Part shown: positions 4,018-29,381 of the stretch, in pieces
Layout: the number at the start of each line of letters is the position of its first letter
Position numbering within the stretch: position 1 is the stretch's first letter
Assembly (NCBI GenBank): GCA_965215405.1
Contig: OZ244060.1
Location: forward strand, 309,833 to 373,832
Direction: 5' to 3'
Origin: Nitrospirales bacterium
Lineage (GTDB): Bacteria > Nitrospirota > Nitrospiria > Nitrospirales > UBA8639
Length of the DNA stretch: 64,000 bases
Notes under the pieces: generated by a model
Databases searched by the model: none
What the model saw: the letters and a program-made list of their open reading frames with translations, nothing else
What the model was told of the DNA's origin: nothing
Program-made: the position numbers and the translations under genes

Positions 4018-4038
4018 ATTTCACCCTTTTTAACAAAA

Positions 4039-4131
4039 TGTACATAATTGTTATTTATTTCAAATAATTTACATTTTTTCAATAATTATACATATTTATC
4101 ATAATTGTACAATATGTATTGTAATTGTACA
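4039..4131. promoter_or_regulatory. AT-rich array of ~19-20-bp degenerate repeats with TGTACA cores (candidate operator/promoter of the phd-vapC operon)
   Basis: AATT(G/A/T)TACA occurs at 4065-4073, 4084-4092, 4103-4111 and 4123-4131, with an inverted TGTACATAATT at 4039-4049. It lies immediately upstream of the minus-strand start at 4017. By eye this is the most AT-rich stretch of the window. Confidence 0.45.
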
Positions 4132-4209
4132 TTTTTATGGCCGCATGAGGCCTGCGTTGATATCTTCTCTGGCAATAGACACATTATCGACGGTTTTTTG
4201 CAGAAAAGC

Positions 4210-4347
4210 CTATGCATAGAAGATAACGACAGCATTGTTTCGATGCTTTGAGATGGCCTCTAAATGCTCTTTCAGTTTCTTATCAAGCCATCTGACAGGT
4301 TCGCGCTGAGATTGCAACAAGTGCAAAAGGTCGCTCCATGAAGCCAT
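4210..4347 (-). CDS. Hypothetical 45-aa ORF (below the ORF-track cutoff)
   Basis: ATG at 4347 is preceded by a GGAG Shine-Dalgarno and sits 11 nt after the stop of the 65-aa ORF. Translation: MASWSDLLHLLQSQREPVRWLDKKLKEHLEAISKHRNNAVVIFYA. No recognisable family. Confidence 0.3.
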   Translation of the reverse strand: MASWSDLLHLLQSQREPVRWLDKKLKEHLEAISKHRNNAVVIFYA

Positions 4348-4358
4348 GGTTACTCCAT

Positions 4359-4556
4359 TTACTCAATGTGAAAGGTATTTGTCGTCAGAGGACGTTCCGG
4401 GGTGGGAGGCTGATATTGTGTTTCTTCCTCAGCCTTCTGAATCGGCAACTTATACAGCTCGCTCACTTCCACGTATTGCTGGTACTGCTTTTTGACCTCT
4501 TCCAACGTCTTCAGGTAGTCATCCGAGACGTTTTCCATTTCGGTTCTTTCAGGCAT
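4359..4556 (-). CDS. Hypothetical 65-aa acidic protein
   Basis: ORF track; charged coiled-coil-like sequence (DDYLKTLEEVKKQYQQYVEVSELYK). Forms a compact pair with the 45-aa ORF. No family recognised. Confidence 0.4.
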   Translation of the reverse strand: MPERTEMENVSDDYLKTLEEVKKQYQQYVEVSELYKLPIQKAEEETQYQPPTPERPLTTNTFHIE

Positions 4557-5028: not shown

Positions 5029-6162
5029 ATGTACACAGAATCATCCGATACGGACCTCCATCTTCCTGAACTGTCGATCAAAGGATTTCGTGGAATCGCA
5101 GACCTTTCGATTCCACAGTTGGGCCGTGTGACGCTGATTGCAGGGAAAAATGGAGTCGGCAAGACCACTCTCCTTGATGCCGTCCGCATCTATGCAGCAC
5201 GCGGCAGCAATTTTGCTCTCACGGACGTATTACAGGACAGGGAAGAGCTTATTACTGCGGTTGCCGATGAGGACAGTGAAGAGTTATCAGCTCCTGATTT
5301 TGGGGCTCTCTTCCATGGCCGGAGCCTCTCGCCAGGGTCTCTCATATCAATAGGCCCTAATAGCGAAACAAAGCGACTCACCATCAGGGTTAGCCCGAAT
5401 TTGCACAAACCTGATATTTCCTCAACGAGTGATAAACCGTTACTTGAGATCGAATTTCAAGGTAAAAAAGAAGAGATTTTTATAGTCCCATGGCTTCCCT
5501 ACCGTGTACCACGTCGCATGCCGCAGGCTCACGAATCCAAGCTCCCACCTGCAATTCGATGTGAATCTTCAGGGCCGAGTTTAATGGACAACGAAAGCAT
5601 AGCGGGATTCTGGGACAGTGTAGCGCTTACGGATTATGAAACCCAAGCAGTACAGGCATTGCGATTGGTCTATGGCGACGAAGTAGACCGTGTTGCAATG
5701 GTTGGGGATGAAAAACGACCTCACCCGATCTATAATCGCCGCGCACTCTATGGCCCACTCTATGGTCGCCGGGCGGTCGTAAAGATAAAAAAGCAAGAGC
5801 GACCAGTTCCTTTGAAAAGCCTCGGTGACGGAGCCGTGCGCCTGTTCGGTGTCGCCTTGGCTCTTGCCAACAGCAAAGGCGGTTTCCTGGTTATCGACGA
5901 AGCTGAAAACGGTGTCCATCATTCGGTACAGCCCGACTTCTGGAAGATGATTATGCGAACGGCACACGATAACAACGTGCAGGTTCTCGCTACAACTCAT
6001 AGCTGGGACTGCGTGGCGGGTTTTGCACAAGCGGCAATAGATTCAGAGGAAGTAAACGGAGTTCTTATTCGCCTCGAGAAGGACATCGACGGAATTCGCG
6101 CCGTAGGATACTCTGAAGACAACCTCAAAGCCGCAGCCAAGCATGGTATCGAGGTCAGGTAA
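5029..6162 (+). CDS. ABC/SMC-like AAA ATPase (AAA_15/AAA_21-type; AriA / AbiLi / RloA / OLD-ATPase-like)
   Basis: Walker A GKNGVGKT; signature-like SLGDGAVRLFGVALAL; Walker B GFLVIDEAENGVH; H-loop ATTHS. The N-terminal ELSIKGFRGI is typical of RecF/SMC-like ATPases. Confidence 0.85.
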   Translation: MYTESSDTDLHLPELSIKGFRGIADLSIPQLGRVTLIAGKNGVGKTTLLDAVRIYAARGSNFALTDVLQDREELITAVADEDSEELSAPDFGALFHGRSLSPGSLISIGPNSETKRLTIRVSPNLHKPDISSTSDKPLLEIEFQGKKEEIFIVPWLPYRVPRRMPQAHESKLPPAIRCESSGPSLMDNESIAGFWDSVALTDYETQAVQALRLVYGDEVDRVAMVGDEKRPHPIYNRRALYGPLYGRRAVVKIKKQERPVPLKSLGDGAVRLFGVALALANSKGGFLVIDEAENGVHHSVQPDFWKMIMRTAHDNNVQVLATTHSWDCVAGFAQAAIDSEEVNGVLIRLEKDIDGIRAVGYSEDNLKAAAKHGIEVR

Positions 6163-6165
6163 TAT

Positions 6166-6795
6166 ATGGCTTTTCCCGGATCGGCTCCACCAGCCTCTCG
6201 CGTTCTTTTAGTCGAAGGACAAAACGACAAGCACGTTGTTCGGAATCTTCGCGACCGTCATCAACTCATGACAGATTTTGATATTCAGGATAGAGACGGC
6301 CTTGACCCACTGCTCGAAACCGTTGGTGCCGAGCTAAAGGTTCCAGGCCGTCAGGCCATCGGTATACTCGTGGATGCAAACGATGATTTGACTGCACGTT
6401 GGCAATCTGTCATTCATCGACTTTGGAAAGAGGATATCACAACGCCCCCGCAACCCGATCCCAAGGGAACGGTCATAGACACAATCGGAAAACCCCGCGT
6501 CGGCATCTGGATAATGCCCGATAATAAGTCAAGCGGAGAACTTGAAAAGTTTGTCGAGCAAATGATCCCTGACAGCGATCCGGTGTGGCCGTTGTCCCAG
6601 CACTACATCAACAAAATTCCTGTAGAAAACAGAAGGTTCACACAGACGAAGACACTACGAGCGAAGATCTATGCCTGGCTGGCGGCCAGAGAGGACCCGA
6701 GGCAAATGGGTTCCGCTATTGGCTCGCACGATTTGAACGTTGACGGCGTTCTCTGTCAGAACTTCCTTGGTTGGCTTAAGGCACTGTTCGCGTAG
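6166..6795 (+). CDS. Small Toprim-like protein (DUF4435 / DUF3226 / DUF4276 / RloB-type candidate), partner of the ATPase
   Basis: RVLLVEGQNDKHVV supplies a Toprim-style Glu and AIGILVDANDD a DxD-style acidic cluster. The start lies 3 nt after the ATPase stop. Confidence 0.65.
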   Translation: MAFPGSAPPASRVLLVEGQNDKHVVRNLRDRHQLMTDFDIQDRDGLDPLLETVGAELKVPGRQAIGILVDANDDLTARWQSVIHRLWKEDITTPPQPDPKGTVIDTIGKPRVGIWIMPDNKSSGELEKFVEQMIPDSDPVWPLSQHYINKIPVENRRFTQTKTLRAKIYAWLAAREDPRQMGSAIGSHDLNVDGVLCQNFLGWLKALFA

Positions 6796-6972
6796 GATCC
6801 GTCTCCGCTGGTGCACGTCTGTCATTTTCTTCCCGCACTCATGCCGATGGCCGCCTATATCCTGCCCCCATACACTACTCCATCAACTCCCGGTTAGCCG
6901 TGACAAGGGTTTACCTGGCGTCGGGCTCAAACGGGCATGGTCTGTTACGCGGCAAGAAAAATGAGGACAATC

Positions 6973-7131
6973 TCATTTTTCAGCAAATTTCCGTACGGCC
7001 TTCGGCACAAAAGCTGCCACCAGGAAATACAAGACGAGTTCAGTCTTGTTTCCGTTTGATCCCCACCCGAATACTTCCACAGTCGCCAAAAATCCAGCAA
7101 AAATCAATGACAACGGGGACATTAGTCGCAT
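6973..7131 (-). CDS. Possible 52-aa two-helix membrane peptide downstream of hsdM-S
   Basis: Internal ATG of the 88-aa ORF: MRLMSPLSLIFAGFLATVEVFGWGSNGNKTELVLYFLVAAFVPKAVRKFAEK. Two hydrophobic segments. Weak ribosome-binding context. Confidence 0.3.
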   Translation of the reverse strand: MRLMSPLSLIFAGFLATVEVFGWGSNGNKTELVLYFLVAAFVPKAVRKFAEK

Positions 7132-7258
7132 AGACGACGGATTCCCTTGATCATCCGATAGAAAGGTTTGCAATTGTTTGGGGCAGGGCCGCGTGTCTGA
7201 GATTCGCTCACAGCAAGTCCTCCATATTGACCACGTCAATAAGGCTCACAGCCTTACG

Positions 7259-7280
7259 TTGAGAAACTATTGTTTCTCAA
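7259..7280. other. Perfect 9-bp inverted repeat hairpin just downstream of the hsdM-S stop
   Basis: TTGAGAAAC-TATT-GTTTCTCAA. No U-tract follows, so its function (terminator or binding site) is open. Confidence 0.35.
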
Positions 7281-7312
7281 GCCGCACATCCAAGCCATAG
7301 AACACAAGCTAA

Positions 7313-9805
<2,493 letters not shown>

Positions 9806-9920
9806 GGGATTTCTTCAGCGCGAACCGCTGACCAAACGATCACGTCCATCCCGCCAGTGAGCGCCGATGCCGATCTCGTCGCGATTGTCGGTCAACGCGT
9901 TGATCATCTTGCAGACGAGG

Positions 9921-10379
9921 TCAACGTTTCGGTGCAGTCGTCGCCACCTCGATTTCGTCCGCAAAGCCGTCTTCTCCTAAATACAGGGCTTTGCAGCCCG
10001 GAACATTTAATATCCCGTCGGCAAACCTGCGATCCGCCGTGACCAATACGGATTCCGTCGTTTCGGCGCAGGCAAGATAGAGACAGTCGTAAATCGGGCG
10101 ATCAAGATCCTGCGCAATCCGCGCCGCACGCGCCACGAGGGTATGAGCTGGATACAGCCTGACGATCTCACTCAAATGTAAAAGTTCATCCACGTATGGC
10201 CTGGCATCTTGAAGCTCGTTCAGGCGGACTTTTTTCCAGATAGTGTTGGCGAACTCGGCCGGCAGGACATCGGGCGCGTGCAGTTCGAGATGGGGGACAA
10301 GCAATAGACGGGATTCTTCGGACAGCGACTCGGGTACAAACCATTTGACGACAACGCTGGCATCGACGGTCAGCTTCAC
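9921..10379 (-). CDS. vapC: PIN-domain toxin (VapC/FitB-like)
   Basis: MKLTVDASVVVKWF start, IYDCLYLA and LVTADRRF acidic positions. Overlaps the upstream antitoxin stop by 4 nt. Confidence 0.85.
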   Translation of the reverse strand: MKLTVDASVVVKWFVPESLSEESRLLLVPHLELHAPDVLPAEFANTIWKKVRLNELQDARPYVDELLHLSEIVRLYPAHTLVARAARIAQDLDRPIYDCLYLACAETTESVLVTADRRFADGILNVPGCKALYLGEDGFADEIEVATTAPKR

Positions 10380-10609
10380 CTGTCTCGATCTTCTCGCAAC
10401 AGCTCGACGCTGTCGGTTTGGGGCCCGTCAGCCATGCCGGCAATCCGGCGCGTTCTCTCTTGAAAGTCGGCGATGCTGACGCGGCGGCCAACCTGATGCG
10501 TCAGCACGTAACGAACCTCCGCTTCCAGCGAACGCTGGTTGGTCTTCGCCTGCGCCTTCAACGTTTCAATCACGTCGTCATCAAGGTTACGGATTGTTAT
10601 ATTTCCCAT
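10376..10609 (-). CDS. Ribbon-helix-helix antitoxin (FitA/VapB-like)
   Basis: MGNITIRNLDDDVIETLKAQAKTNQRSLEAEVRYVL is the canonical FitA/Arc-type RHH N-terminus. Coupled to the PIN gene. Confidence 0.8.
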   Translation of the reverse strand: MGNITIRNLDDDVIETLKAQAKTNQRSLEAEVRYVLTHQVGRRVSIADFQERTRRIAGMADGPQTDSVELLREDRDR

Positions 10610-10695
10610 AGTCCGTTCTCCTGCCTGGGGGACTTCAATATGACAGCATATTGCCAGCGAAAAATCAACAAAAATGCAGATGACCTGTAACTATG

Positions 10696-10812
10696 GGGCT
10701 TCGGGCGTCGCGTGTCCGAGATGACATTGGTGTCAAGAAGATACATCCGTTCACTCGAAACTCATCACTGCGCGATAGTGGTGCCTGGTGCGTGTGGCAC
10801 ACAGACGAATCA
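10696..10812 (-). pseudogene. Scar of an older vapBC pair (antitoxin tail plus first 17 codons of a PIN toxin)
   Basis: Reverse strand: ...AVMSFE* then, 5 nt later, ATG (10746) MYLLDTNVISDTRRPKP. Similarity is lost after that point. It lies directly after the hsdR stop. Confidence 0.5.
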
Positions 10813-13335
10813 TTATGCTGCAAACTGATTCAGTGAGACGTAATCTTTGACGTACTCGGGAATAAGCGCACGGTATTCCTTCGGTACTGCCCGGTAGTCC
10901 TGAGTGGAAAAGACCGGAGAAGTGGCCAGGCTGGCGAACTGCCGCTCGTCGATGATCTCGCGGGTGTAGCGGTCGGTGGTGTATGCCTTGAAGTAGGTCT
11001 TGATGGCCGGGATGGAGTCTGCCCGTGCCGGCACGTGGTCGACGACAAATTTGGCAAATTCCTCTTCCAGCAGTTCGTCCCTGGATTTGAAGCGTGGGAT
11101 GACGTCAAAAATCTTTTCCAGAATCTCACGCAGGTTCAGCCGGCGGTCCGCGGCGGTGGCACGGCGCAGCTTGTCGAGGGTGTAATATTCCTCGGGCTTG
11201 TCGAAGACCTCTCGATTGACGTAGTCGATGACGTGGTCCCATTGCCCGGCTTCGACGGCCTTTGCAATGGTTTCGTTGTCTCGCACCGTGGACGCAAACC
11301 TGTCGAAGAACATCCGGTCGATTTTCATCCCCTCCGGACCGATGGGCTGTTCGACGATTCCTTCGAGGCTGTCACGACCCAGATGTTCGTAGTTCCAGGA
11401 GGATGGGGGCAGGTCCGGGCCGGCGGTGCCTTGCCTGGCCCGAGGCCGTGGCAGATCCAGAACTTCGTCGTAGTTGAACCCTGTCTCGAAATACTCGCAG
11501 TTGGCGAAGAAATCGAAGAGCTTGTATGCGGTCTTTTCCGACGAACCGACGTCCTTTTTCAAGGCATCATCCCGCAGCAATTCCAGGAAATCGTGCCTGC
11601 GCGTGCCGCGACCCTTGATCTGAATGAAGTCGGTGGGTGAGAAAACAGGCCGGAACATGCCGAGATTCAGGATATCGGTACAATCATAACCGGTCGTCAT
11701 CATGCCGACCGTCACACAGACACGGGCCTTGCTCGTCTTGTAGTCGGACCGGAAGTTGCCCGAGCCGAGCAGGTTGTTATTGGCAAAGTTAATGGTGAAC
11801 TGCTGAGCGTGGGGTACGTGCGAGGTGACCTGCACGGCAAAATCCGACTGGTACTTCCCAGGGAACAGGCGGTCAGCCATCTGATTGAGGATTTGGGTCA
11901 GCCTGGCCGCGTGGTCCTGACTGACGGCAAAAACGATGGATTTGCCGACCTCTCCGCTGATCGGGTCGCGCAGGGCATTCTCAAGAAAGGTCTGACAAAA
12001 CAGTTGGTTGGTGTCTTCGGCAAAGAAGCCTCTCTCGAAATCGCGCTGCTTGTAGGTTTTCCGTTCCTCCTCGCCGCTGTCATTGGTGAACGATACCACA
12101 AAACCCGCTTCTGACAGGAGTTGGGTGGTAACTTCCGTACGCGCGTCCACCACTGTGGGGTTAATCAGAAAGCCGTCCTTTACACCGTCGAGCAGTGAGT
12201 AGCGAAAGGTTGGCTCTCTGTTTTCGCAGCCAAAGGTGCGATAGGTGTCCAGCAGCAGCCGACGCTCGGTCTCGCGCGGGTCGGCGGCACTGGCATGATC
12301 TCTGCCTTTGAGATAGTCGCGGGGCGTGGCGGTCAGGCCCAGCTTGTAGCCGACGAAATAGTCGAACACGGCCCGGGCATTGCCGCCGATTGAACGGTGC
12401 GCCTCGTCGGAAATCACCAGGTCAAAGTCCGTGGGGGAGAAAAGCCGTTGGTATTTATTATTGAACAGCAGAGCCTGGACCGTGCTGACCACGATTTCGG
12501 CCCGCCGCCATTCGTCTCGCTTCTCTTTGTACACGACCGTCTGAAAGTCCTGGGACAGCAGGGCCGAAAAAACCTTTTTTGCCTGTTCTTCCAGTTCAAG
12601 GCGGTCCACCAGGAACAGCACACGGCGGGCATTGCCGGAACGCAGAAACAGCTTGACGACCGCTGCGGCGGTGAGCGTCTTGCCCGTTCCGGTCGCCATC
12701 TCGAACAGAAAGCGGTCTTTACCGTCCCGTACCGCCCGTTGCAGGGCATGGACGGCTCTAAGTTGATAGGAACGCAGAAAGCGTAACCCGTTGGCCTGGA
12801 TGAAGCCGGGGCGCTCGTCTTCGTTCTTCCAGGCTGCCTCGGATGCGTAGCCGGGCCGCTGGGTGAGCACGATGTAGTCGTCTCCGACCCGCTCATCAAT
12901 CAGGCGCTGGGGCTCGGGCGTAAACGTCTGGTAGCCGGCCATCGAGTCTGGCGTCGGGAACGCGGGGATGGGGCACGGGTTGCCGCGCTCCAGGTCCCAG
13001 AAATAGTGCAGATTTCCGTTCGAGAGTATAACGAAGCGGCAGTGCTGCGAGCGGGCGTACTTACGGGCCTGCTCTTTGCCAACCAGCGGATTCTTGTCCT
13101 CGGCTTTGGCCTCCAGCACGATGAACGGGAAGCCCTTGGCGTCGAGCAGGAGGAAGTCGATAAAGCCCCTGGTGGCGTTCTCGAAGTTCTCACCCAGGGC
13201 GTCCAGGTCGGACTCCTTGATCGTGACGTTTGGTTCGAGACAGACGTTGGGGGGGTTGTCTCCCTCTGCGAAGAAACGCCATCCGGCTGCTTCAAGCCGC
13301 TTGTTGATCTTTATGCGGGCCGTTGCTTCGTTCAC
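10813..13335 (-). CDS. hsdR: Type I restriction enzyme R subunit (nuclease + SF2 helicase/translocase)
   Basis: N-terminal PD-(D/E)xK-like IDFLLLD...IVLEAKA; helicase motifs MATGTGKT and LVISDEAHRS; 840 aa. Confidence 0.92.
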   Translation of the reverse strand: MNEATARIKINKRLEAAGWRFFAEGDNPPNVCLEPNVTIKESDLDALGENFENATRGFIDFLLLDAKGFPFIVLEAKAEDKNPLVGKEQARKYARSQHCRFVILSNGNLHYFWDLERGNPCPIPAFPTPDSMAGYQTFTPEPQRLIDERVGDDYIVLTQRPGYASEAAWKNEDERPGFIQANGLRFLRSYQLRAVHALQRAVRDGKDRFLFEMATGTGKTLTAAAVVKLFLRSGNARRVLFLVDRLELEEQAKKVFSALLSQDFQTVVYKEKRDEWRRAEIVVSTVQALLFNNKYQRLFSPTDFDLVISDEAHRSIGGNARAVFDYFVGYKLGLTATPRDYLKGRDHASAADPRETERRLLLDTYRTFGCENREPTFRYSLLDGVKDGFLINPTVVDARTEVTTQLLSEAGFVVSFTNDSGEEERKTYKQRDFERGFFAEDTNQLFCQTFLENALRDPISGEVGKSIVFAVSQDHAARLTQILNQMADRLFPGKYQSDFAVQVTSHVPHAQQFTINFANNNLLGSGNFRSDYKTSKARVCVTVGMMTTGYDCTDILNLGMFRPVFSPTDFIQIKGRGTRRHDFLELLRDDALKKDVGSSEKTAYKLFDFFANCEYFETGFNYDEVLDLPRPRARQGTAGPDLPPSSWNYEHLGRDSLEGIVEQPIGPEGMKIDRMFFDRFASTVRDNETIAKAVEAGQWDHVIDYVNREVFDKPEEYYTLDKLRRATAADRRLNLREILEKIFDVIPRFKSRDELLEEEFAKFVVDHVPARADSIPAIKTYFKAYTTDRYTREIIDERQFASLATSPVFSTQDYRAVPKEYRALIPEYVKDYVSLNQFAA

Positions 13336-13534: not shown

Positions 13535-15010
13535 TCAGGGCAGCGAGGCGGAAGCCGTCAATGAGACGAGTGGCCACGGATACAGCCCGAATATCACGAC
13601 CCCAGCGACGGCAACGGCCAACGCCACGGTCGCGGTCGGGGACAAAGCCAGGCGCGTTTCGCGCTCTGGGTCGGACGTCGGTTCTCGCATGTACATGACC
13701 ATCACGACGCGCAAATAGTAGAACGCAGAGACTGCCGCAAAGATCAACCCGACCACGGCCAGCCAGGTCAGGCCGGCATTCACCGCGGCCATAAACAGAT
13801 AAAATTTTCCTATGAATCCGGCAGTCGGCGGAATGCCCGCGAGCGAGACCATAAAGAGCAGCATCAGAAACGCCGCGCCCTTGTGGCGTTTGGCTAAACC
13901 GGCGAAGTCGTCCAAGTCTTCTCCTTCACAATCCCCTCGTCGAAGAATCGCAACAAGGGTGAACGCCCCAAAGGTCATGAAGGCATAGACGGCCAGATAC
14001 AGCATCATGCCGGACACGCCTTTTGCCGACGCCCCGGCTTCGGTTCCGACCCATCCCGCCACGACCAACCCGATCAACGCGTAGCCGGCGTGAGCAATGC
14101 TGGAGTACGCCAGCATACGCTTCACGTTCGTTTGCACGATCGCCACGAGGTTCCCCAGGATCAAGGTCAGGACACACACGCCCAAAATCAGTCCGCTCCA
14201 ATTCGGTTTCATGCCTCCAAAGCCTTCAAGCATCACCCGAAGGAACGCCCCGAAGCTCGCGGCTTTTGACGCCACGGCCATAAACGCGGTCACCGACGTT
14301 GGCGCGCCTTGATACACGTCCGGTGTCCACATATGAAACGGCACGGCCGACACTTTGAATCCGAACCCCACAATTACCAGCGTCAGGGCAATGAGTATCA
14401 TCGAATCGTCAAGGCCCCGCGCGCCGATCACCGCGGCAATTTCTACCAGACGCGTGCTGCCGGCGGCTCCAAAGATGAGTGAAATGCCGTAGAGCAAAAG
14501 GCCCGACGAAAACGCTCCTAAAATAAAGTACTTGGCCGATGATTCGACGGACCGGGCTTCAAATCGCTTGAAGCCCGCCATCACGTAGAGCGGGATGGAC
14601 ATCAACTCGATGCCCAGATAGATGACCAACAGGTCGGCACCGGAGACCATGATCAGCATTCCGGTCAGGGAAAGCAGCACGAACCCGTAGAATTCGGCCA
14701 GATCCATCCGCTCTTCCTTGAGATACCCGATGGAGAGCAGGATCGTCATGCCACTCACGACGTAGAGCAACAGTTTCCAAAACGAGGCATACCTATCCAC
14801 CACCACGAGATCGCTGAACGCATAGACCCGGTCACCCAGGCTGCTCGCCGTGACGATGAAACACACCGCGAGCGTTGCGAGACTCATCCATGCCAGCAGA
14901 TCTTTCCTGGTCGATGGAGTGACGGGCTCCAGTACCAATAAGAGGCAGGCGACGAACGCGACGATCAACTCCGGGGCAATCGTTACCAGATCCGCGAGAG
15001 GAATCGTCAT
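13535..15010 (-). CDS. nuoN: NADH-quinone oxidoreductase subunit N
   Basis: 491-aa polytopic antiporter-like protein, last gene of the nuo operon, overlapping nuoM by 4 nt. Confidence 0.9.
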   Translation of the reverse strand: MTIPLADLVTIAPELIVAFVACLLLVLEPVTPSTRKDLLAWMSLATLAVCFIVTASSLGDRVYAFSDLVVVDRYASFWKLLLYVVSGMTILLSIGYLKEERMDLAEFYGFVLLSLTGMLIMVSGADLLVIYLGIELMSIPLYVMAGFKRFEARSVESSAKYFILGAFSSGLLLYGISLIFGAAGSTRLVEIAAVIGARGLDDSMILIALTLVIVGFGFKVSAVPFHMWTPDVYQGAPTSVTAFMAVASKAASFGAFLRVMLEGFGGMKPNWSGLILGVCVLTLILGNLVAIVQTNVKRMLAYSSIAHAGYALIGLVVAGWVGTEAGASAKGVSGMMLYLAVYAFMTFGAFTLVAILRRGDCEGEDLDDFAGLAKRHKGAAFLMLLFMVSLAGIPPTAGFIGKFYLFMAAVNAGLTWLAVVGLIFAAVSAFYYLRVVMVMYMREPTSDPERETRLALSPTATVALAVAVAGVVIFGLYPWPLVSLTASASLP

Positions 15011-16584
15011 CGCGTCTCAGCCTTTGTCACGTCGGCTCCCGGGGCAGACCGAACGGCGTCGAGGGTCGGCGACGAGGGAGGCGCAGCGTCCGCCACCGTG
15101 ACTTTCGCCTGCCGTTGAATCAGATGATCGACGCTGGCATGCATCACGTCCAGCAGCGGCCTGGGATACAACCCAATCCAAAACACGAAGAACGCCAGGG
15201 GCGCCAACAGGCCGATTTCACGCCAGTTCACGTCATAGAGCCCGGACGCCACGCGTTGCGCCGGGGTCCCGTACACCACGCGCTGCAACATCCATAATAT
15301 ATACACTGCCGCGAGAATGACCCCCAGGGCCGCCGCCGTTGCGACGGCCTTACTCCACATAAACGTCCCCACCAGCACGAAAAATTCGCCCACAAAGCTG
15401 TTCATGCCCGGCAACCCCACGGAGGACAACGCGAAGATCACGAGAAACGAGGCAAAAATCGGCATGGACGCGGCCAATCCCGAATTGTCGACGATCGCGC
15501 GGCTGTGCGTCCGTTCATAAAGAATGCCCACGCACAGAAAGAGCGCGCCGGTGGTGACGCCGTGATTGACCATTTGCAGGATGGCGCCTTCGATCCCCTG
15601 GGCGTTGAACACAAAAATGCCCAGCGTGACAAATCCCATGTGGCTCACGCTGGAATAGGCGATCAGTTTTTTGAGATCGGCCTGGGCAAAGGCCATGTAG
15701 GCGCCGTAGATGATCGCCACCACCGACAGGAAGAGCACCACCGAGGTAAACTGCCGCGTGGCGTCCGGCAGCATGGGCAACGAGAAACGCAGAAATCCAT
15801 AGGCACCCAATTTGAGCAAGACACTTGCCAGCATCACGCTGCCCGCGGTGGGAGCCTCCACGTGGGCGTCCGGCAACCACGTATGAAACGGAAACATCGG
15901 CACTTTCACGGCAAACGCGGCGAAGAAGGCCCAAAACAACCAGGCCTGCAACGAGGGCGGATACGCGGCGTTGCTCAGCGTCAGGATATCGAAAGACCGT
16001 TCTCCGGCGTAAAAGTAGAGCACGATGATCGCCACGAGCAGCAGGACGCTCCCGGCCAGGGTATACAGAAAAAACTTTATGGCCGCGTACACGCGATTGG
16101 GTCCGCCCCAGATCCCGATCAGGAGATACATGGGGATCAGCATGGTTTCCCAGAAAACGTAGAACAACACAAAATCCAGCGCGACGAACACGCCAAGCGT
16201 GGCGGTTTCCATCACGAGCAGGCTGATCATGAATTCTTTGACCCGCGTCTCGATCGACGTCCAGGAAACCAGGACGCAGAGTGGAGTCAGCAGAGTGGTC
16301 AGCAGCACCAAAGGCAGGCTGATCCCATCCACGCCCACCGCGTAGTTGATGGAGGGCGACGCAATCCATTGACGCGTTTCGACAAACTGCATGGCGGGCG
16401 TGGATTCATCAAACAGCACCCACAGTGGGAGAGACACCAGGAACGCCAGCGATGAAATCCCCAGGGCCATCCATCTGGCCATGGCTTCTCTGGCCAGGAG
16501 AATCGCTGCCACGCCCAACAACGGCAGGAAGACGACCAGGGTCAGCCAAGGGAATCCGCCGGAAGCCACTGTCACGTCGATCAC
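15007..16584 (-). CDS. nuoM: NADH-quinone oxidoreductase subunit M
   Basis: 525-aa antiporter-like subunit (…FFLYTLAGS…WLPDAHVEAPTAGSV…) between nuoL and nuoN. Confidence 0.9.
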   Translation of the reverse strand: MIDVTVASGGFPWLTLVVFLPLLGVAAILLAREAMARWMALGISSLAFLVSLPLWVLFDESTPAMQFVETRQWIASPSINYAVGVDGISLPLVLLTTLLTPLCVLVSWTSIETRVKEFMISLLVMETATLGVFVALDFVLFYVFWETMLIPMYLLIGIWGGPNRVYAAIKFFLYTLAGSVLLLVAIIVLYFYAGERSFDILTLSNAAYPPSLQAWLFWAFFAAFAVKVPMFPFHTWLPDAHVEAPTAGSVMLASVLLKLGAYGFLRFSLPMLPDATRQFTSVVLFLSVVAIIYGAYMAFAQADLKKLIAYSSVSHMGFVTLGIFVFNAQGIEGAILQMVNHGVTTGALFLCVGILYERTHSRAIVDNSGLAASMPIFASFLVIFALSSVGLPGMNSFVGEFFVLVGTFMWSKAVATAAALGVILAAVYILWMLQRVVYGTPAQRVASGLYDVNWREIGLLAPLAFFVFWIGLYPRPLLDVMHASVDHLIQRQAKVTVADAAPPSSPTLDAVRSAPGADVTKAETR

Positions 16585-16591
16585 AATCCTC

Positions 16592-18490
16592 TCATGAAAA
16601 AAGCAGGTACGCGGTTAAGATAATGACCGCTCCCATGGTCATGCCGAGCGCGTAATTCTGCGTTTCACCGGTTTGAATCAAACGGGCCATCCAGCCCCAC
16701 CAGGCAAACCCACGAGCCACGCCATTGACCGCGTTGTCGATGACGGCGACGTCCACTTTTTTCCACATCCGGTCCGCGAGCACGAACGTGGGATTCACAA
16801 ACGCCTTCTCATAGGCTTCATCCACGTACCACTTGTTGAGCGAGCCGCGATATAACCCGCGCCATCGATTCATCAGACGATCGGGACAGTCGGGTGACGT
16901 CACGTAGACGACGTAGGCCGCGGCAATGCCGATCAGGCCGGCCAACGTCGTCACCAGCATGATGCCCGTGGCGGCCGCGCCGTGGTGCCCTCCGTCTTCA
17001 CCGCCGGGGAAGGCCCGTTGCAGAAAATCCGGAATGCCCAGATACCCCGTCGCAATACTGAGGACGGCCAACACCAGCAAAGGAGCGGTCACGACGAAGG
17101 GTTGTTCCCGCACGTGGTCGGCGTGACGCGGATCGACTCGGGACTCTCCCCAAAAGGTGACAAACACCAGACGAAAACTATAGAAAGCCGTCAGTCCCGC
17201 CGTGAGGATTCCCGCTCCCGTGAGGATTTGACCCAATGCTCCCGCGTTCCAGGCGGCCAGCAACAATTCGTCTTTACTGAAAAATCCAGCGGTGAAGGGG
17301 AATCCGGCCAGTGCCAACGAGCCAATGATAAACGTCCAATAGGTGATGGGCATTTTATCTTTCAGCCCGCCCATTCGTCGCACGTCCTGCTCATGATGGA
17401 CGGCCAGAATGACGGACCCGCATCCCAGGAAGAGGAGTGCCTTGAAGGCGCCGTGCGTCAGCAGGTGATAGACGCCGGCAACGTATCCGCCCAACCCGCA
17501 CGCCATCATCATGTACCCGAGTTGACTCAGGGTCGAATAGGCCACCACGCGCTTCATGTCGTTTTGTGTCAGAGCAATCGTGGCGCCGATCAACATGGTC
17601 ACCCCTCCCACGACCGCCACGACGTCCATGGCCACGGGAGACACGTTATACAGGGAGGCAAACCGCGCCACCATGAACACGCCGGCGGTTACCATGGTGG
17701 CGGCGTGAATCAGGGCGGAAATGGGAGTGGGACCTTCCATGGCGTCCGGCAGCCACACGTGCAGCGGGACTTGAGCGGACTTTCCGGCGGCACCCACGAA
17801 CAGCAGCAGGCAGATCAGGGTCATCGCGGACACGGCCCACCCACCGCCGAATGCTCCCAGCAGATCGATTGTGACTTCGGCTTTGGCCGCGGCCCCGGTG
17901 AACACCGGCTGGTACTGCACGGTTCCAAACACCGCAAACACCAACAGGACGCCGAGCAGAAATCCGAAGTCACCGACTCGATTGACGATAAAGGCCTTGG
18001 TCGCCGCGGCTCTTGCCGTGGGCCGTTCATACCAATGACCAATCAGCAAATAGGAGCACAGTCCGACCGCTTCCCAAAACACAAACAGTTGGAGGAAGTT
18101 GTCAGACATGACCAGCATCAGCATGGAGAACGTAAACAACGCAATGTTGGCAAAGAACCTCGCGTAGCCGGGTTCGCCGTGCATGTACCCGATGGTATAG
18201 ACGTGCACCAGCCCACTGACGATGGTCACCAACAACAACATGGCCGCCGTCAACTGATCGACGTAGAACCCAAGACGAATGGTGAGATCACCGGAAGCCC
18301 CCCACGTATACAAAGGGACTTCCAGCACCCGTCCGTCGGCGACTTCCGAAAAGGCGAGAACCGACAACAGGAAGGACGCCCACACGGCAGGCACGGCGAT
18401 CAGATGTGCGCGCTCCTTCAAGACGTGCCCGGCCAGGCTGATCACGATAAAAGCCAGAAGGGGCAAGAGGGGGATCAAGACGTACGGCAT
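16592..18490 (-). CDS. nuoL: NADH-quinone oxidoreductase subunit L
   Basis: 632-aa antiporter-like subunit (…WLPDAMEGPTPISALIHAATMV…) with a long C-terminal extension. Confidence 0.9.
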   Translation of the reverse strand: MPYVLIPLLPLLAFIVISLAGHVLKERAHLIAVPAVWASFLLSVLAFSEVADGRVLEVPLYTWGASGDLTIRLGFYVDQLTAAMLLLVTIVSGLVHVYTIGYMHGEPGYARFFANIALFTFSMLMLVMSDNFLQLFVFWEAVGLCSYLLIGHWYERPTARAAATKAFIVNRVGDFGFLLGVLLVFAVFGTVQYQPVFTGAAAKAEVTIDLLGAFGGGWAVSAMTLICLLLFVGAAGKSAQVPLHVWLPDAMEGPTPISALIHAATMVTAGVFMVARFASLYNVSPVAMDVVAVVGGVTMLIGATIALTQNDMKRVVAYSTLSQLGYMMMACGLGGYVAGVYHLLTHGAFKALLFLGCGSVILAVHHEQDVRRMGGLKDKMPITYWTFIIGSLALAGFPFTAGFFSKDELLLAAWNAGALGQILTGAGILTAGLTAFYSFRLVFVTFWGESRVDPRHADHVREQPFVVTAPLLVLAVLSIATGYLGIPDFLQRAFPGGEDGGHHGAAATGIMLVTTLAGLIGIAAAYVVYVTSPDCPDRLMNRWRGLYRGSLNKWYVDEAYEKAFVNPTFVLADRMWKKVDVAVIDNAVNGVARGFAWWGWMARLIQTGETQNYALGMTMGAVIILTAYLLFS

Positions 18491-18494
18491 GGCA

Positions 18495-18800
18495 CTACCA
18501 CTTCAACAAGCGGAAATCATCGACGTTGACGCCGGCGTGATGGCGGTAAAGAGCAATAATAATGGCAAGACCCACGGCCACTTCGGCGGCAGCCACGGTC
18601 AGGGCGAAGAAGACAAAGACCTGCCCGGCCAGGTTGCCGAAATGGGAGGAAAAGGCTACAAAATTGATATTCGTGGCATTGAGCATCAATTCAATAGACA
18701 ACAAGATGACAATCAGGTTCTTTCGGACCAGGACGCCGACGAGACCGATGATGAACACCAGCCCGCTCAACGCCACGTAGAATTCCACGGGCACGCTCAT
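18495..18800 (-). CDS. nuoK: NADH-quinone oxidoreductase subunit K
   Basis: 101 aa; LSIELMLNATNINFVAF and AAAEVAVGLAIIIALYR are typical NuoK segments. Confidence 0.9.
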   Translation of the reverse strand: MSVPVEFYVALSGLVFIIGLVGVLVRKNLIVILLSIELMLNATNINFVAFSSHFGNLAGQVFVFFALTVAAAEVAVGLAIIIALYRHHAGVNVDDFRLLKW

Positions 18801-18886
18801 GAGGCTGCCTCATCTCGTCTTGTCATGGCCTTCATTCTCATCACGCACGCACTCGGCGGGGCGAAGACGTCCATTGAGGTGACGCG

Positions 18887-19204
18887 TCAGATCCGAATAT
18901 CCTCTCGCGATTCCCACCAGGCTTTCACGTTATCAAATCGTCCCATTCGATCTTTGATTTTCAAAATTTCTTTGGGGTAGAAATCAAGCATTCTCTCGCA
19001 AAGCTGAAGCATCCGTTTCTTGCGCGAATATCCATCAATCAATTTGATATGGTTTGAATTGGCTGTTTGAATCCGGCCCCACCCCAACGCACCCGAAGTC
19101 AAACGTTCCCCGTCCAGGTATTCGACAGGAGAAAAAATGACGTCGTCCCTGATTTTTCTTGCGGCTTCCAAATAGTGACCATCATAGTAAAAAGAAGACT
19201 TCAT
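18887..19204 (-). CDS. Hypothetical 105-aa protein, translationally coupled to the upstream DNA methyltransferase (candidate small nuclease or other partner; function unknown)
   Basis: ATGA start/stop overlap with the methyltransferase at 19201-19204. Visibly more AT-rich than the flanking nuo genes. No motif recognised. Confidence 0.55.
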   Translation of the reverse strand: MKSSFYYDGHYLEAARKIRDDVIFSPVEYLDGERLTSGALGWGRIQTANSNHIKLIDGYSRKKRMLQLCERMLDFYPKEILKIKDRMGRFDNVKAWWESREDIRI

Positions 19205-20193
19205 AACGCGAGACGTTCTTGTTTGAAGGATTGTGATTTGCTTCCAGGCCGATTATTGAGGGAATTGCGTTCCCAGAAAACACCGTCCGTATATCCCTGA
19301 ATCGTTGAATCGGAAGCGACCATCTCCAAGCGCTTAAGTGCCCAGCAGCAATATTCCTTATTAAGCTCTATACCACAAAAATTCCTGCCCAACTTTGCCG
19401 CGGCAACAACCGTGGTGCCACTGCCCAGGAAAGGATCAAACACAAACCCGCCTTTCTTCGAACTCGCCAGAATAAGTTTGGCTATCAGTTTTTCAGGTTT
19501 CTGTGTCGGGTGGTGAGTATTTTCCGGCATAGACCAAAATGGGATCGTTATATCTGTCCAGACGTTAGAGGGGCACGTGCGGCGATAGTTTCCGCTCTCT
19601 GCTTCATCCCAATCCTTTGGTTTCCCGTTTACCCTGTAAGGCGCGATGACCTTTCGTTTTAATTTCACGGAGTCCACGTCAAAGTAGTAGTCATCCGAAG
19701 CCGTACAAAACCAAACGTCCTCAGTGTTATTCTTCCAGTTTAATTTCGCGCCGCGTCCTTTTTCTCTTTCCCATGTAATCCGATTTCGAATATGGAAATG
19801 CTTTTCGAGAATCGGAGCAATAAGAACGGACGTTTTCCAGTCGGAACACACGTAAACCGTTGCCGTTGATTTGAGAGTCGGCATTAAGGCTTTAACGGCA
19901 CGCTGAAACCACTGCTGATAATCCGCCTTCTCTTTTTCTTTGAAGAGGTGCCCGTTATAGTCTTTGGCGAGATTATAGGGTGGGTCTAAAATAAGGAGGT
20001 CGACAAAACGCTGAGGTAACTTTTCTGCCACGTTGAACGTGTCACCGCAAATGATTTTTTCACCAATGTCCCTAACGCCAACCAGGTTATCGACGTAACT
20101 GATCTGACCTGACAGTCGGTCAATTTCTTCTTTGTGACTGATCAGCGTTCGGTTTCTTCGAGATTTCCGTTTCATCGTCAGATCGGCCTTCAA
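19201..20193 (-). CDS. Beta-class N6-adenine/N4-cytosine DNA methyltransferase (N6_N4_Mtase family)
   Basis: Motif IV LILDPPYN lies N-terminal to motif I FVFDPFLGSGTT, the beta-class order. HPTQKPEKL motif present. 330 aa. Confidence 0.88.
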   Translation of the reverse strand: MKADLTMKRKSRRNRTLISHKEEIDRLSGQISYVDNLVGVRDIGEKIICGDTFNVAEKLPQRFVDLLILDPPYNLAKDYNGHLFKEKEKADYQQWFQRAVKALMPTLKSTATVYVCSDWKTSVLIAPILEKHFHIRNRITWEREKGRGAKLNWKNNTEDVWFCTASDDYYFDVDSVKLKRKVIAPYRVNGKPKDWDEAESGNYRRTCPSNVWTDITIPFWSMPENTHHPTQKPEKLIAKLILASSKKGGFVFDPFLGSGTTVVAAAKLGRNFCGIELNKEYCCWALKRLEMVASDSTIQGYTDGVFWERNSLNNRPGSKSQSFKQERLAL

Positions 20194-20246
20194 CGTTTCA
20201 GCTTGCAGGATGAAACACTTGCCGCCTGGTCGCGTTCCCGACTTCC

Positions 20247-20768
20247 TCAGGCAGAGGACTTCGACTTCATGATTCCCTTTTTGGATAAGATGACCGCGCC
20301 GATCATGGCCACCAGCAAGATGAGCGAGGCAATTTCAAACGGGAATAAATAGGTGGAATACAAGACCGCCCCGATCGATTCCGTGTTCCCCGCGACCCCG
20401 GTCGCCCCTTCCGGTCCGGGGCCGGGCGACGCCACGGTGACTCCACGACTGACCGCAAGCAAAACGGCTTCGGTCAACAACGCCGCGCCGAGAAACAAAG
20501 CCACCGGCCCCTGTTGGTTGTAGCGCTCTTCACGTTTCACGTTCAGTAACATCACGACGAACAGATAGAGCACCAGGATCGCCCCGGCATACACGATGAT
20601 TTGAACGGCGGCTAAAAACTCGGCGTGCAGCGTGACGTATAAGCCGGCCACGTGAAAAAACATGACCAATAAGGACAGGGCACTGTAGATGGGGTTGCGA
20701 AGCAGGACGACGAGCGAAGCGGTCACCAGAATGACTGCGGCAAAATACACAAAGACGAACGTGGCCAC
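20247..20768 (-). CDS. nuoJ: NADH-quinone oxidoreductase subunit J
   Basis: 173 aa; LLRNPIYSALSLLVMFF...AAVQIIVYAGAILVLYLFVVML is typical NuoJ. Confidence 0.9.
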   Translation of the reverse strand: MATFVFVYFAAVILVTASLVVLLRNPIYSALSLLVMFFHVAGLYVTLHAEFLAAVQIIVYAGAILVLYLFVVMLLNVKREERYNQQGPVALFLGAALLTEAVLLAVSRGVTVASPGPGPEGATGVAGNTESIGAVLYSTYLFPFEIASLILLVAMIGAVILSKKGIMKSKSSA

Positions 20769-27093: not shown

Positions 27094-28866
27094 TCACCGA
27101 TCACACTCACCCATGACGATGTCATAGGTGCCGAAGATGGTAATAATATCAGAAATCAGATAGCCGCGGGACATAAAATCAAACGCTCCCATATGGACGA
27201 ACGAGGGTGAGCGGATTTTCATGCGATAGGGCCGTGGGCTGCCGTCGCTGATCAGGAAAAATCCCAACTCCCCCTTGGGCACCTCGGTCCCGCAATAGGT
27301 TTCCCCCTTCGGTGGCTTAAACCCCTGGGTAAAGATGATGAAATGATGGATCAAGCTTTCCATGTCCCGCATCACGGCGGGTTTGGGCGGGGGAATCACC
27401 TGGGGCATATCCGCCATAATGGGGCCCTCCGGCAACTGATCCAGGCATTGCGCAATGATTCGAGCACTTTGCTTCATTTCTTCAACGCGAATCCAATACC
27501 GATCATACGTGTCTCCGTCTTTGCCGACGGGGACGTCCCAGTCCACGCGATCATAGACGCCGTACGGCTCGAGTTTGCGCACGTCATAGGCCACGCCCGA
27601 CCCCCGAAGCGTCGGCCCCGTGAGCCCGAAATTAATGGCGTCTTCCCCGGACACGACCGCCACGCCTTTGGTTCTGGCCACCCAGATCCGATTATTTTTC
27701 AACAAGACGTCGTATTCCTGCACGTGCTGAGAAAACGTTTTCAAAAAACTTCGAAGGCGTTCGATCAGTTCCGGGGTGAGATCGCCGTCCACCCCCCCAA
27801 TGCGATAATAATTCAGCGTTAATCGCGCGCCACATAACTGTTCAAAGAAGTCGAGCAATACTTCCCGCTCACGAAACGTCCAGAAGAAGACCGTCATGGC
27901 CCCGATATCCAGCGCCTGCGTGCCTAACCAGAAGAGGTGGCCAACGATTCGCTGAACTTCGGCCACGATCGTCCGGACATACTCGGCCCGCTCCGGCAGC
28001 GTCACGCCGACCAATTTTTCAACGGCGCGAACGTAGGCATAGTTGTTCGTCATGGCGCACACGTAATCCAGGCGATCCGTATGCGGGATGACCTGCATAT
28101 AATGGAGACCTTCGGCAAGTTTTTCGACGCCGCGGTGCAGATACCCCACGTCGGGAACGGCTTTGGTAACTCGTTCGCCGTCCAGTTCCAGCACCACCCG
28201 CAAGACCCCATGGGTGCTGGGGTGCTGTGGGCCCATATTGAGCAACAATTCCGTCGTGCGCCTGCCCGTCTGCTCGCCGGGCAGGGAGGAGTCAGAATCA
28301 TCCCCGGCCAGAAAGACGTGCCGTTGATCTTGCGGAACGTCGCGTTCCGTCCATTCACTCTCCGGTTCATCCAGGCGGGGAAGAAAATCAAAGGTGCTTC
28401 TCCATCCCCTGCCTTCGGTTGGAAAGTCCTTTCGAAGGGGATAGCCTTCCGCGTAATCTTCCGGCAACAGAATCCGTCGCGGGTCCGGATGCCCCTCGAA
28501 CGTGATCCCCATCAGATCGAATACTTCGCGTTCGAGAAAATTCGCGCCTTTCCAGATGGGCGTAATGGATCCGATGGTGGGGCAGTCTTCGGTCACGCGG
28601 GCTTTCACGCGAATCCGGGTTTTATGCGGGAGGGAGAGAAAGTGATAGATGACTTCAAACCGTTCGAGATCATCGGGATAGTCTGCCGAGCAAACGTCGG
28701 TAAGATGATCGAAGGCCATGCCGGGATCATCATGAAGGAAGCGCGTCACTTCGACGAGATCCCGTGCCCGCACCTGGGCCGAAAGATCGCCCCTCACGGG
28801 ATCCTCGCGCACGGACAGCACGGCCTCGGGAAAACGCTCGCGTAAGGTTTCAAGCACTCGATGCAT
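27094..28866 (-). CDS. nuoC: Fused NADH-quinone oxidoreductase subunits C and D
   Basis: NuoC part (MHRVLETLRERFPEAV…FDHLTDVCSADYP…), an acidic linker, then NuoD (LLLNMGPQHPSTHGVLR…YLHRGVEKL…GECDR). The start is placed at ATG 28866, because the longer track ORF would overlap nuoB. Confidence 0.88.
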   Translation of the reverse strand: MHRVLETLRERFPEAVLSVREDPVRGDLSAQVRARDLVEVTRFLHDDPGMAFDHLTDVCSADYPDDLERFEVIYHFLSLPHKTRIRVKARVTEDCPTIGSITPIWKGANFLEREVFDLMGITFEGHPDPRRILLPEDYAEGYPLRKDFPTEGRGWRSTFDFLPRLDEPESEWTERDVPQDQRHVFLAGDDSDSSLPGEQTGRRTTELLLNMGPQHPSTHGVLRVVLELDGERVTKAVPDVGYLHRGVEKLAEGLHYMQVIPHTDRLDYVCAMTNNYAYVRAVEKLVGVTLPERAEYVRTIVAEVQRIVGHLFWLGTQALDIGAMTVFFWTFREREVLLDFFEQLCGARLTLNYYRIGGVDGDLTPELIERLRSFLKTFSQHVQEYDVLLKNNRIWVARTKGVAVVSGEDAINFGLTGPTLRGSGVAYDVRKLEPYGVYDRVDWDVPVGKDGDTYDRYWIRVEEMKQSARIIAQCLDQLPEGPIMADMPQVIPPPKPAVMRDMESLIHHFIIFTQGFKPPKGETYCGTEVPKGELGFFLISDGSPRPYRMKIRSPSFVHMGAFDFMSRGYLISDIITIFGTYDIVMGECDR

Positions 28867-28901
28867 GGAACGGCAAAGTCCGGTTGGAATGAATGGGGAC
28901 C

Positions 28902-29381
28902 TTACTTCACGAACACTTTTTCCTTTTGAATTTTTTCTTGCAATTTCATCAAGGCATCCAAGAGGGCTTCCGGGCGTGGAGGACACCCCGCCACGTAGAC
29001 GTCGACCGGCACGATTTGATCCACTCCCTGCACCACGCTGTAACTGTTGTAATGATTGCCCGACGTCGCACATGAGCCCATGGAGACGACGTATCGTGGT
29101 TCGGCCATCTGATCATAGATACGCCGAATCACCGGCGCCATTTTGCGACACACGGTTCCGGCCACGATCATGACGTCCGATTGTCTGGGAGACGCGCGAA
29201 AGACGCCTGCTCCGAATCGGTCGATGTCATAGCGCGAGGACACCGACGCAATCATTTCAATCGCGCAACAGGCCAGCCCGAAGGTCATCGGCCACAAGGC
29301 CGACTTCCGGCACCAACTCACCAGATAATCGAGATTGGTGGTAAGAATATTCGGTTCAAACCGTCGTTCCAGCATACTCAT
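28902..29381 (-). CDS. nuoB: NADH-quinone oxidoreductase subunit B
   Basis: [17 protein letters not shown] and GCPPRPEAL cluster-N2 cysteine motifs. Confidence 0.92.

Follow-up and report, generated by a model that had tools for sequence, protein, structure and literature searches.

Post-segregational killing is an established behaviour of Type II restriction-modification systems. The SsuDAT1I restriction-modification genes of Streptococcus suis, described by Sekizaki et al. in 2001, reportedly lie between purH and purD. A Type II system that had inserted within a gene arrangement resembling an operon was the own case of Furuta et al. 2010, who cite Sekizaki et al. 2001 (J Bacteriol 183:500, pmid 11133943) as an earlier example (PMC2853133). 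Decay in place of complete systems has long been put forward as a source of solitary methylases, and in their large pan-genome survey Oliveira et al. 2014 found this origin to be uncommon (PMC4176335). Here we analyze a 64,000-nt stretch of the genome of a Nitrospirales bacterium (contig OZ244060.1, positions 309,833 to 373,832), hereafter the window, in which a beta-class DNA methyltransferase gene and a 105-amino acid (aa) open reading frame (ORF) lie between nuoJ and nuoK of the respiratory complex I operon. We consider it highly probable that this cassette is a decaying Type II system, descended from one old insertion in the nuo operon, that is turning into a solitary methylase accompanied by an endonuclease remnant. 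Loci in other genomes are cited below by their labels (L001 and so on).

The 105-aa open reading frame

What is the 105-aa protein encoded directly downstream of the methylase? The first-pass annotation, made from the sequence alone, had suggested a very small nuclease, a controller or something new. Neither Pfam and NCBIfam nor PADLOC and PHROGs yielded a family for the ORF, and used on its own as a homology query it brought back only four proteins. A near-identical relative (L006), whose nuo genes are ~99% and whose methylase is 98% identical to those of the window, carries an intact 222-aa gene at the same position. Aligned with the 222-aa protein of L006 (P0008), the 105-aa ORF corresponds to residues 1-20 plus 138-222, with 94% identity and a single 117-codon gap. 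Codons 1-20 (~19145-19204) are joined in frame to codons 138-222 (18890-19144), and residues 21-137, which include the invariant D74, D88, V89 and K90, have been lost through a 351-bp in-frame deletion. The entire 105-aa sequence is accounted for as endonuclease fragments, and it lacks a helix-turn-helix or other domain match that would mark it as a controller (C) protein. The intact catalytic core of a cognate endonuclease is present in L005, L006 and L093 and absent from the window. Judged by these alignments, the 105-aa ORF is what an in-frame internal deletion has left of a restriction endonuclease, 222 aa long and widespread; it is devoid of the catalytic residues and probably an inactive, pseudogene-like relic. 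A false lead is thereby removed: the unrecognizable protein is a gene remnant of a PD-(D/E)XK endonuclease and does not represent a novel kind of small nuclease or of controller.

Could the shortened protein nevertheless be a functional small partner of the methylase, whether a mini-nuclease, a controller, an antitoxin-like modulator or a dominant-negative subunit consisting of the N-terminal helix and the C-terminal domain? The deletion is in frame and has kept the ATGA coupling to the methylase, and a second, independent in-frame derivative, lacking residues 78-154, exists in another genome (P0004). Such a function is nonetheless very unlikely. The exact 105-aa form is confined to one genome, it matches no family in the four collections searched, every invariant catalytic residue is gone, and other lineages have removed the endonuclease gene in quite different ways. 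Across the 85 codons aligned with L006 there are five non-synonymous and no synonymous changes since the split, and the changes W149G, C151R and Q161R fall on family-invariant sites.

The full-length endonuclease family

The family to which the remnant belongs became visible with a full-length query. A Nitrospirales relative with a 2.5-Mb genome (L001, OY729426.1) has, between nuoJ and nuoK, the methylase followed by overlapping 129-aa and 105-aa ORFs, an extra T in a run of T residues having split an otherwise single 222-aa gene. The family query was this full-length gene rebuilt from the frameshifted copy, and it matched 3,752 clusters, nearly all of them exactly 222 aa long and 65-86% identical. 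In the same word-indexed homology search the remnant had found four matches, despite sharing long identical stretches with the family; short or fragmentary queries may badly under-report family size in searches of this type.

D74, D88, V89 and K90 are invariant across an alignment of 64 sequences. An AlphaFold model built on the family alignment (predicted local distance difference test score, pLDDT, 84; predicted template-modelling score, pTM, 0.80) places D74 and D88-V-K90 on predicted strands 75-79 and 84-93. Compared with the Protein Data Bank (PDB) by Foldseek, the model resembles R.SwaI (5tgq/5tgx, template-modelling (TM) score 0.69-0.71, E 1.7e-8), many HincII chains (E ~1e-8 to 1e-6) and EcoRV (E ~1e-4). 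SwaI, HincII and EcoRV are all blunt cutters. Sequence searches with the 222-aa protein gave sub-threshold matches only. Each hit was to either HincII or a model of Type II endonucleases, and each lay in the same segment, in which ADLAF...VVDVKT of the family aligns with ADILL...LLDVKT of HincII, a stretch that we take to be the catalytic D/D-x-K motif of that enzyme. The HincII model PF09226 scored 12.8-13.0 bits (E ~0.07) against a gathering threshold of 23.7 bits, and a profile search against PDB gave E 0.058 for HincII, so that the relation to HincII is a resemblance at the level of the predicted fold only. On the strength of the model, the full-length protein is a PD-(D/E)XK endonuclease of the EcoRV/HincII/SwaI structural group.

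A ~324-aa methylase gene immediately precedes the 222-aa gene in all eight of the other contexts that were read (L005, L006, L007, L088, L089, L090, L093 and L095, the gene call in L090 being shorter), and the pair occupies unrelated neighbourhoods and genomes across phyla. This pairing, taken together with the restriction-endonuclease fold, points to a compact Type II restriction-modification pair. L092 had looked like a lethal case, an intact endonuclease without a methylase, and was ruled out as such, since a scaffold gap of Ns lies inside its methylase gene.

No Pfam or NCBIfam model reaches threshold with the 222-aa family, no characterized member was found in the databases searched, and a single UniRef name, 'Restriction endonuclease', is the only one that identifies a member as such. 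Neither 72,556 plasmids nor 50,697 phage records contain a match, and one distant relative (55% identity) was present among 2.9 million viral contigs. A family that counts over 3,700 clusters, yet is covered by neither Pfam nor NCBIfam, merits definition. The other in-frame deletion derivative, P0004 (L003:277-714; ERZ23495630 scaffold_29400), is found outside a nuo context, with a methylase 3' fragment upstream and an HPPK/pterin-binding gene following in place of nuoK. In-frame loss of the catalytic core has thus happened at least twice in the family, in the window and in L003.

The insertion between nuoJ and nuoK

The features of the locus, with coordinates in the window, are as follows.

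20247-20768, minus strand: nuoJ, NADH dehydrogenase chain 6 (PF00499, E 1.4e-42)
18801-20253, minus strand: inserted segment of 1,453 bp that empty-site relatives lack, with low GC and low GC at third codon positions (GC3) (blastn against L009 and junction sequences)
20176-20246, minus strand: left non-coding spacer, between the stop of nuoJ and the ATG of the methylase, with homology among all copies at the nuo site
19201-20175, minus strand: beta-class DNA methyltransferase, 324 aa, intact ORF (PF01555, E 4.5e-42)
18887-19204, minus strand: 105-aa ORF, remnant of the 222-aa endonuclease gene (DNA and protein alignments to L006 and P0008)
18801-18886, minus strand: right non-coding spacer, 86 nt, carrying the nuoK ribosome-binding site (sequence and relatives)
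18495-18800, minus strand: nuoK, chain 4L, the first gene 3' of the insert (PF00420, E 1.6e-30)

The complex I operon runs on the minus strand in the order nuoCD (fused, 27094-29073), nuoF, nuoG, nuoH, nuoI, nuoJ, the gap, nuoK, nuoL, nuoM and nuoN, the last three genes spanning 13535-18490. The first-pass annotation had described the ~1.45-kb gap as DNA more AT-rich than its flanks, carrying on the nuo strand a beta-class methyltransferase coupled by an ATGA overlap to the 105-aa ORF, and that description holds throughout: the PF00499 and PF00420 matches place the gap, the methylase has PF01555 and the motif order DPPY then FLGSGTT, and its TGA overlaps the ATG of the 105-aa ORF (TTATGAAG). 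GC content is 0.43-0.49 within the insert versus 0.55-0.62 in the flanks, and GC3 is 0.51 for both insert genes versus 0.62-0.75 for nuoH-L. Neither terminator-like nor promoter-like sites were found on the minus strand in 18801-20246, the former as the annotation had noted. Folding of both cassette spacers was no better than that of shuffled sequences, and an Rfam scan of the window found only two tRNAs, both outside the spacers.

Is the cassette foreign to the operon? A scan for NuoJ, taking one genome per species, gave 80 Nitrospirales loci, and in ~73 of these 80 representative species nuoJ and nuoK abut or overlap (TCCTCATGA), leaving an empty site of the form ...TCCTCATGAGC..., exemplified by ...AAGTCCTCATGAGCGTG in L009 (OZ252040.1). 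The window reads ...AAGTCCTC, followed by 1,453 bp ending in ...GGCAGCCTC, followed by ATGAGCGTG. When the window is compared with L009 by blastn, exactly 18801-20253 is unmatched, with a 4-bp overlap, and CCTC stands at both ends of the insert (20254-20257 and 18801-18804), which from the sequence is either microhomology or a target duplication of 4 bp. Apart from CCTC, the insert is not convincingly bordered by terminal inverted repeats or by direct repeats of any length, and the direct repeats of hundreds of bp that mark the long target duplications of Furuta et al. 2010 are missing here.

Not only did the insert separate the two genes, it also provided parts of both. The last codon (Ala) and stop of nuoJ (20247-20249) come from inserted DNA, whereas nuoJ at empty sites (junctions of L009-L042) ends ...KSS* and overlaps the nuoK ATG. 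The ribosome-binding site of nuoK, a GAGG (18808-18811) that precedes the ATG at 18800 by 7 nt, is likewise supplied by the insert. The 86-nt right spacer is kept in all deletion variants and conserved in L005, L006, L008, L021, L026 and L033, and its retention fits selection against deletions that would harm initiation of nuoK translation.

The proposal of a horizontally acquired, restriction-modification-derived cassette gains support from the empty sites of relatives, the non-native GC3 and the same gene pair in unrelated genomes. Its converse, that both genes belong natively to the complex I operon as accessory members specific to the lineage, is hardly credible: the site is empty in sister taxa as well as in most of the other species, the proteins are a DNA methyltransferase and a protein with a restriction-endonuclease fold, the same pair sits in unrelated neighbourhoods elsewhere, and GC3 is 0.41-0.51 as against 0.62-0.75 in nuo genes. 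Long residence and co-divergence with the operon (see below), co-orientation and the lack of transcription signals of their own are what nativeness would predict. The first-pass annotation had named an ancient, native operon member as the finding that would overturn it; as to age this was half right, the insertion being old and co-diverged, but the cassette is patchy in distribution, foreign in composition and decaying.

A long target duplication does accompany the gene pair in L007 (ERZ25073814 ctg9781), from an unrelated genome of 3.5 Mb: a 577-bp direct repeat with 96.5% identity. The repeat copies, at 3845-4412 and 6763-7339, duplicate a 138-aa glyoxalase-family gene, a textbook insertion of this kind. 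Upstream of the methylase in L007 lie ~750 bp of AT-rich DNA that appear to encode a C-terminal fragment of a tyrosine recombinase (...HELLGHKDIETTMIYIHV).

The methylase

The methylase is intact. DPPY (motif IV) precedes FLGSGTT (motif I), the order that defines the beta class, so that both the FxGxG and the (D/N/S)PP(Y/F) motifs of Type II methyltransferases are present, and PADLOC assigns it to the Type II methyltransferases (MTase_II, E 3.3e-62). The PF01555 N6_N4_Mtase match (E 4.5e-42) was obtained with an ORF of 19201-20193 that opens at a TTG at 20193; the in-frame ATG at 20175 is the more likely start, because relatives encode a 324-aa methylase. Of the proteins with solved structures, M.BceJIV (8urk) comes closest, with E 5e-37 across residues 46-288; CcrM, M.MboIIA and M.RsrI also match. 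Its adjacent partner being inactivated, and no other copy of that partner lying within the 64-kb window, the methylase is probably now solitary in this genome, and DPPY together with its N6-methyladenine (m6A)-forming relatives suggests that it methylates adenine at N6.

Which site might it recognize? The base-contact residues of M.BceJIV, which methylates GTWWAC, are R180, L182, F183, W188, R203, H205 and Q207 (PMC11380664). These align to K, W, D, G, T, F and S in the window methylase, and transfer of the GTWWAC specificity is ruled out. In a search for palindrome avoidance in the window and in the pooled loci, no 6-mer stood out (worst z -2.5 in the window, -2.9 in the pool). Of the 4-mer palindromes only AGCT and CTAG are depleted in the window, 64 kb being too little sequence for site inference. 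AGCT occurs 81 times in 1-64000, against 141 expected under a maximal-order Markov model (z ~-5), and CTAG 13 times against 34 expected.

Is the methylase still under selection, or is the whole cassette inert cargo, in which the methylase too is dead or unexpressed and has simply not yet been deleted? Over the long range, the ratio of non-synonymous to synonymous divergence (dN/dS) of the methylase is 0.10-0.22 between lineages, namely 0.217 between L026 and L033, both of which lack the endonuclease, and 0.10-0.20 in other pairs; intact 324-aa ORFs are found in the window, L026 and L033, and in the last two GC3 is 0.61-0.62, shifted toward the host value. These values indicate that the methylase is under purifying selection across lineages, including those without endonuclease. 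In L026 and L033 selection appears to have maintained it after the endonuclease was lost, while the loss in the window is too recent for a direct test. The inert-cargo explanation can point to L021, where only residues 7-75 of the methylase remain, and to the dN/dS of 0.42 between the window and L006, which rests on ten differences (four synonymous, six non-synonymous). None of these is at a conserved position, since they lie at variable positions or the window carries the ancestral residue, and with motifs I and IV and the ORF intact and the long-range ratios low, we regard inert cargo as unlikely.

Decay and age of the cassette

On a tree of NuoHIJKL, the filled sites fall into two subclades and range from complete to vestigial. 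The intact pair is present at the nuo site in three lineages (L005, L006 and L092/L093). L001 and L008 carry an endonuclease with a +1 frameshift in the T run, which in L001 (OY729426.1) is a run of seven T at L001:10003-10009 and is also seen in the Logan assembly of ERR11641160. L026 has the methylase and the last ~20 endonuclease codons, L033 has the methylase and the first ~15, and L021 keeps methylase residues 7-75 and the C-terminal end of the endonuclease. L026 and L021 are sister lineages that both retain the C-terminal end only, and their deletions may be one shared event. At least four distinct endonuclease lesions are present at the nuo site: those of the window, of L001/L008, of L026 and L021, and of L033. 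At L021:3590-3840, where the body of the methylase is missing, three tandem copies of a ~75-bp unit directly follow the DPPYNLD codons.

All filled sites share the same junctions, with CCTC on both sides, and homologous non-coding spacers, which are 59-83% identical between the copies of the two subclades, a score that none of 500 shuffles reached. In every pair compared, the cassette has a synonymous divergence (dS) as high as that of the nuo genes on either side, or slightly higher. Between subclades the nuo genes have a dS of ~0.7-0.9, the endonuclease one of ~0.8-0.9 and the methylase one of ~1.1 (0.67-0.85, 0.87 and 1.14, respectively, for the window and L005), and within a subclade it is ~0.35 for cassette and nuo genes alike. 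Since cassette dS tracks nuo dS and the junctions and spacers are shared, the sequences are most simply read as a single insertion that predates the split of the subclades, after which cassette and operon diverged together.

Alternatively, the nuoJ/nuoK junction could be a recurrent insertion hot spot, and the cassettes of the two subclades would then be independent or recently exchanged. The distribution on the nuo tree is patchy, the gene pair is clearly mobile across phyla, and the flanks of L005, which is filled, and L029, which is empty, are 99-100% identical up to the exact junction. Presence of the cassette evidently still varies between very close strains, in a direction of change that cannot be read from the pair. 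We nevertheless find a hot spot quite unlikely, given the identical CCTC junctions and the homology of both spacers in both subclades, and given that recent transfer predicts a cassette dS much smaller than the observed values, which follow nuo dS pair by pair. The comparison of L005 with L029, which differ only by the cassette and have an exact junction, together with the existence of partial deletions of several sizes, weakens the idea in the first-pass annotation that an insert at this location would be hard to lose.

Neighbouring genes and other insertions

A second insertion is present in the nuo operon of one subclade, a DUF4268 gene between nuoI and nuoJ (L005:3342-4271). The nuoI-nuoJ gap is ~1.15-1.24 kb in L005, L021, L029, L032 and L033 and 265 bp in L026, and the DUF4268 genes of L005 and L029 are only 73-92% identical within flanks that are 99-100% identical, which suggests a hypervariable allele. 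In L064, ~1 kb separates nuoK from nuoL. Intergenic junctions of the nuo operon in Nitrospirales seem to take up foreign genes repeatedly.

Directly downstream of nuoN in the window (5029-13335) is a defence-type cluster. It comprises an HsdR-like Type I restriction subunit beside nuoN (10813-13335, minus strand), which is also present in L001 and L006, a protein in which N6_Mtase and Methylase_S are fused (7313-9805, minus strand) and, on the plus strand at 5029-6795, an AAA_15/AAA_21 ATPase accompanied by a DUF3226 protein.

Discussion

How might a restriction-modification unit have come to reside between two genes of complex I, and what would have become of it there? We propose that a compact two-gene Type II unit, methylase then endonuclease with overlapping stop and start, would have inserted once, long ago, at the overlapping nuoJ stop and nuoK start in the ancestor of this Nitrospirales clade, and would have been inherited with the operon since. 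As long as the endonuclease worked, the insert would have been stabilized by post-segregational killing; after its loss, the cassette would have been free to erode or be removed, and release from the killing constraint fits the range of states in relatives, intact, partly deleted or empty. The cassette would be transcribed within the nuo mRNA, nuoK-N would be expressed by read-through, the methylase would be translated from the nuo transcript and methylate its target, and nuoK would be translated from the ribosome-binding site supplied by the insert. Read-through, which was also the expectation of the first-pass annotation, is the simplest and most likely arrangement, because no terminator or promoter is visible and because the right end of the insert supplies the nuoK ribosome-binding site.

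Several points weigh against the reading of one old insertion now decaying to a solitary methylase. A single insertion requires several later exact losses or allele replacement (L009, L029, L032, L020 and a large empty subclade). The frameshift in L001 could be a sequencing error, lying as it does in a homopolymer of seven T, and the two assemblies that agree on it are perhaps not independent. The five non-synonymous and zero synonymous changes of the remnant may be read as relaxed constraint and are too tiny a count for proof, and the few changes between the window and L006 methylases do not prove either relaxed or maintained selection in this genome. The search that found no second copy of the 222-aa gene, with P0008 as tblastn query, covered the 64-kb window only. 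Finally, read-through of the cassette within the complex I operon is probable on sequence grounds, and activity of the methylase we infer from its intact ORF and from selection on it.

The methylase may have gone one step further and become domesticated: co-transcribed with complex I, kept through speciation and through repeated, independent endonuclease loss, it could serve a small-genome Nitrospirales clade in an epigenetic role, at a dose coupled to how strongly the respiratory chain is expressed. We regard this as a doubtful though conceivable outcome. If true, the locus would be a rare natural record, stage by stage, of a selfish restriction-modification unit becoming a host orphan methylase in place.

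Whatever the role of the methylase, a single orthologous site documents most stages of decay: intact pair, frameshift, in-frame deletion, a few endonuclease codons, methylase fragment and clean empty site. It offers a clear case in which the in-place degradation route, rare according to the pan-genome survey (PMC4176335), can be followed while the methylase appears still to be under purifying selection. It also suggests that a selfish gene pair can reside for long between overlapping essential respiratory genes by supplying the displaced stop codon and ribosome-binding site.

In kind, the locus belongs with what is already known, a Type II insertion in an operon-like cluster and decay to a solitary methylase. 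It resembles Type IIP systems that combine an EcoRV/HincII/SwaI-fold endonuclease with a beta-class amino-methyltransferase in having two adjacent, co-oriented genes, a methylase with DPPY before FxGxG (PF01555) and, in relatives, a full-length partner with a D...(D)VK motif and a predicted fold like SwaI (TM ~0.7), HincII and EcoRV; it differs from them in that the endonuclease of the window is a catalytically gutted 105-aa remnant. Like SsuDAT1I of S. suis, it is a Type II unit inserted into an operon-like gene cluster. Unlike in that case, the target lay where the stop and start of two genes for complex I membrane subunits overlap, nuoJ has a new stop and nuoK a new ribosome-binding site from the insert, and the cassette has persisted through speciation in graded states of decay. 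Orphan m6A methyltransferases of the beta class, among them CcrM and M.BceJIV of Burkholderia cenocepacia, are homologous to the window methylase, which like them probably has no working partner; the base-contact residues of M.BceJIV are not conserved in it, however, and its orphan status would have arisen in place, through decay of the endonuclease. The locus is modestly unusual in its complex I stop/start target, its long co-divergence with the operon, the full decay series at one orthologous site and the large endonuclease family without a Pfam or NCBIfam model to which the remnant belongs.

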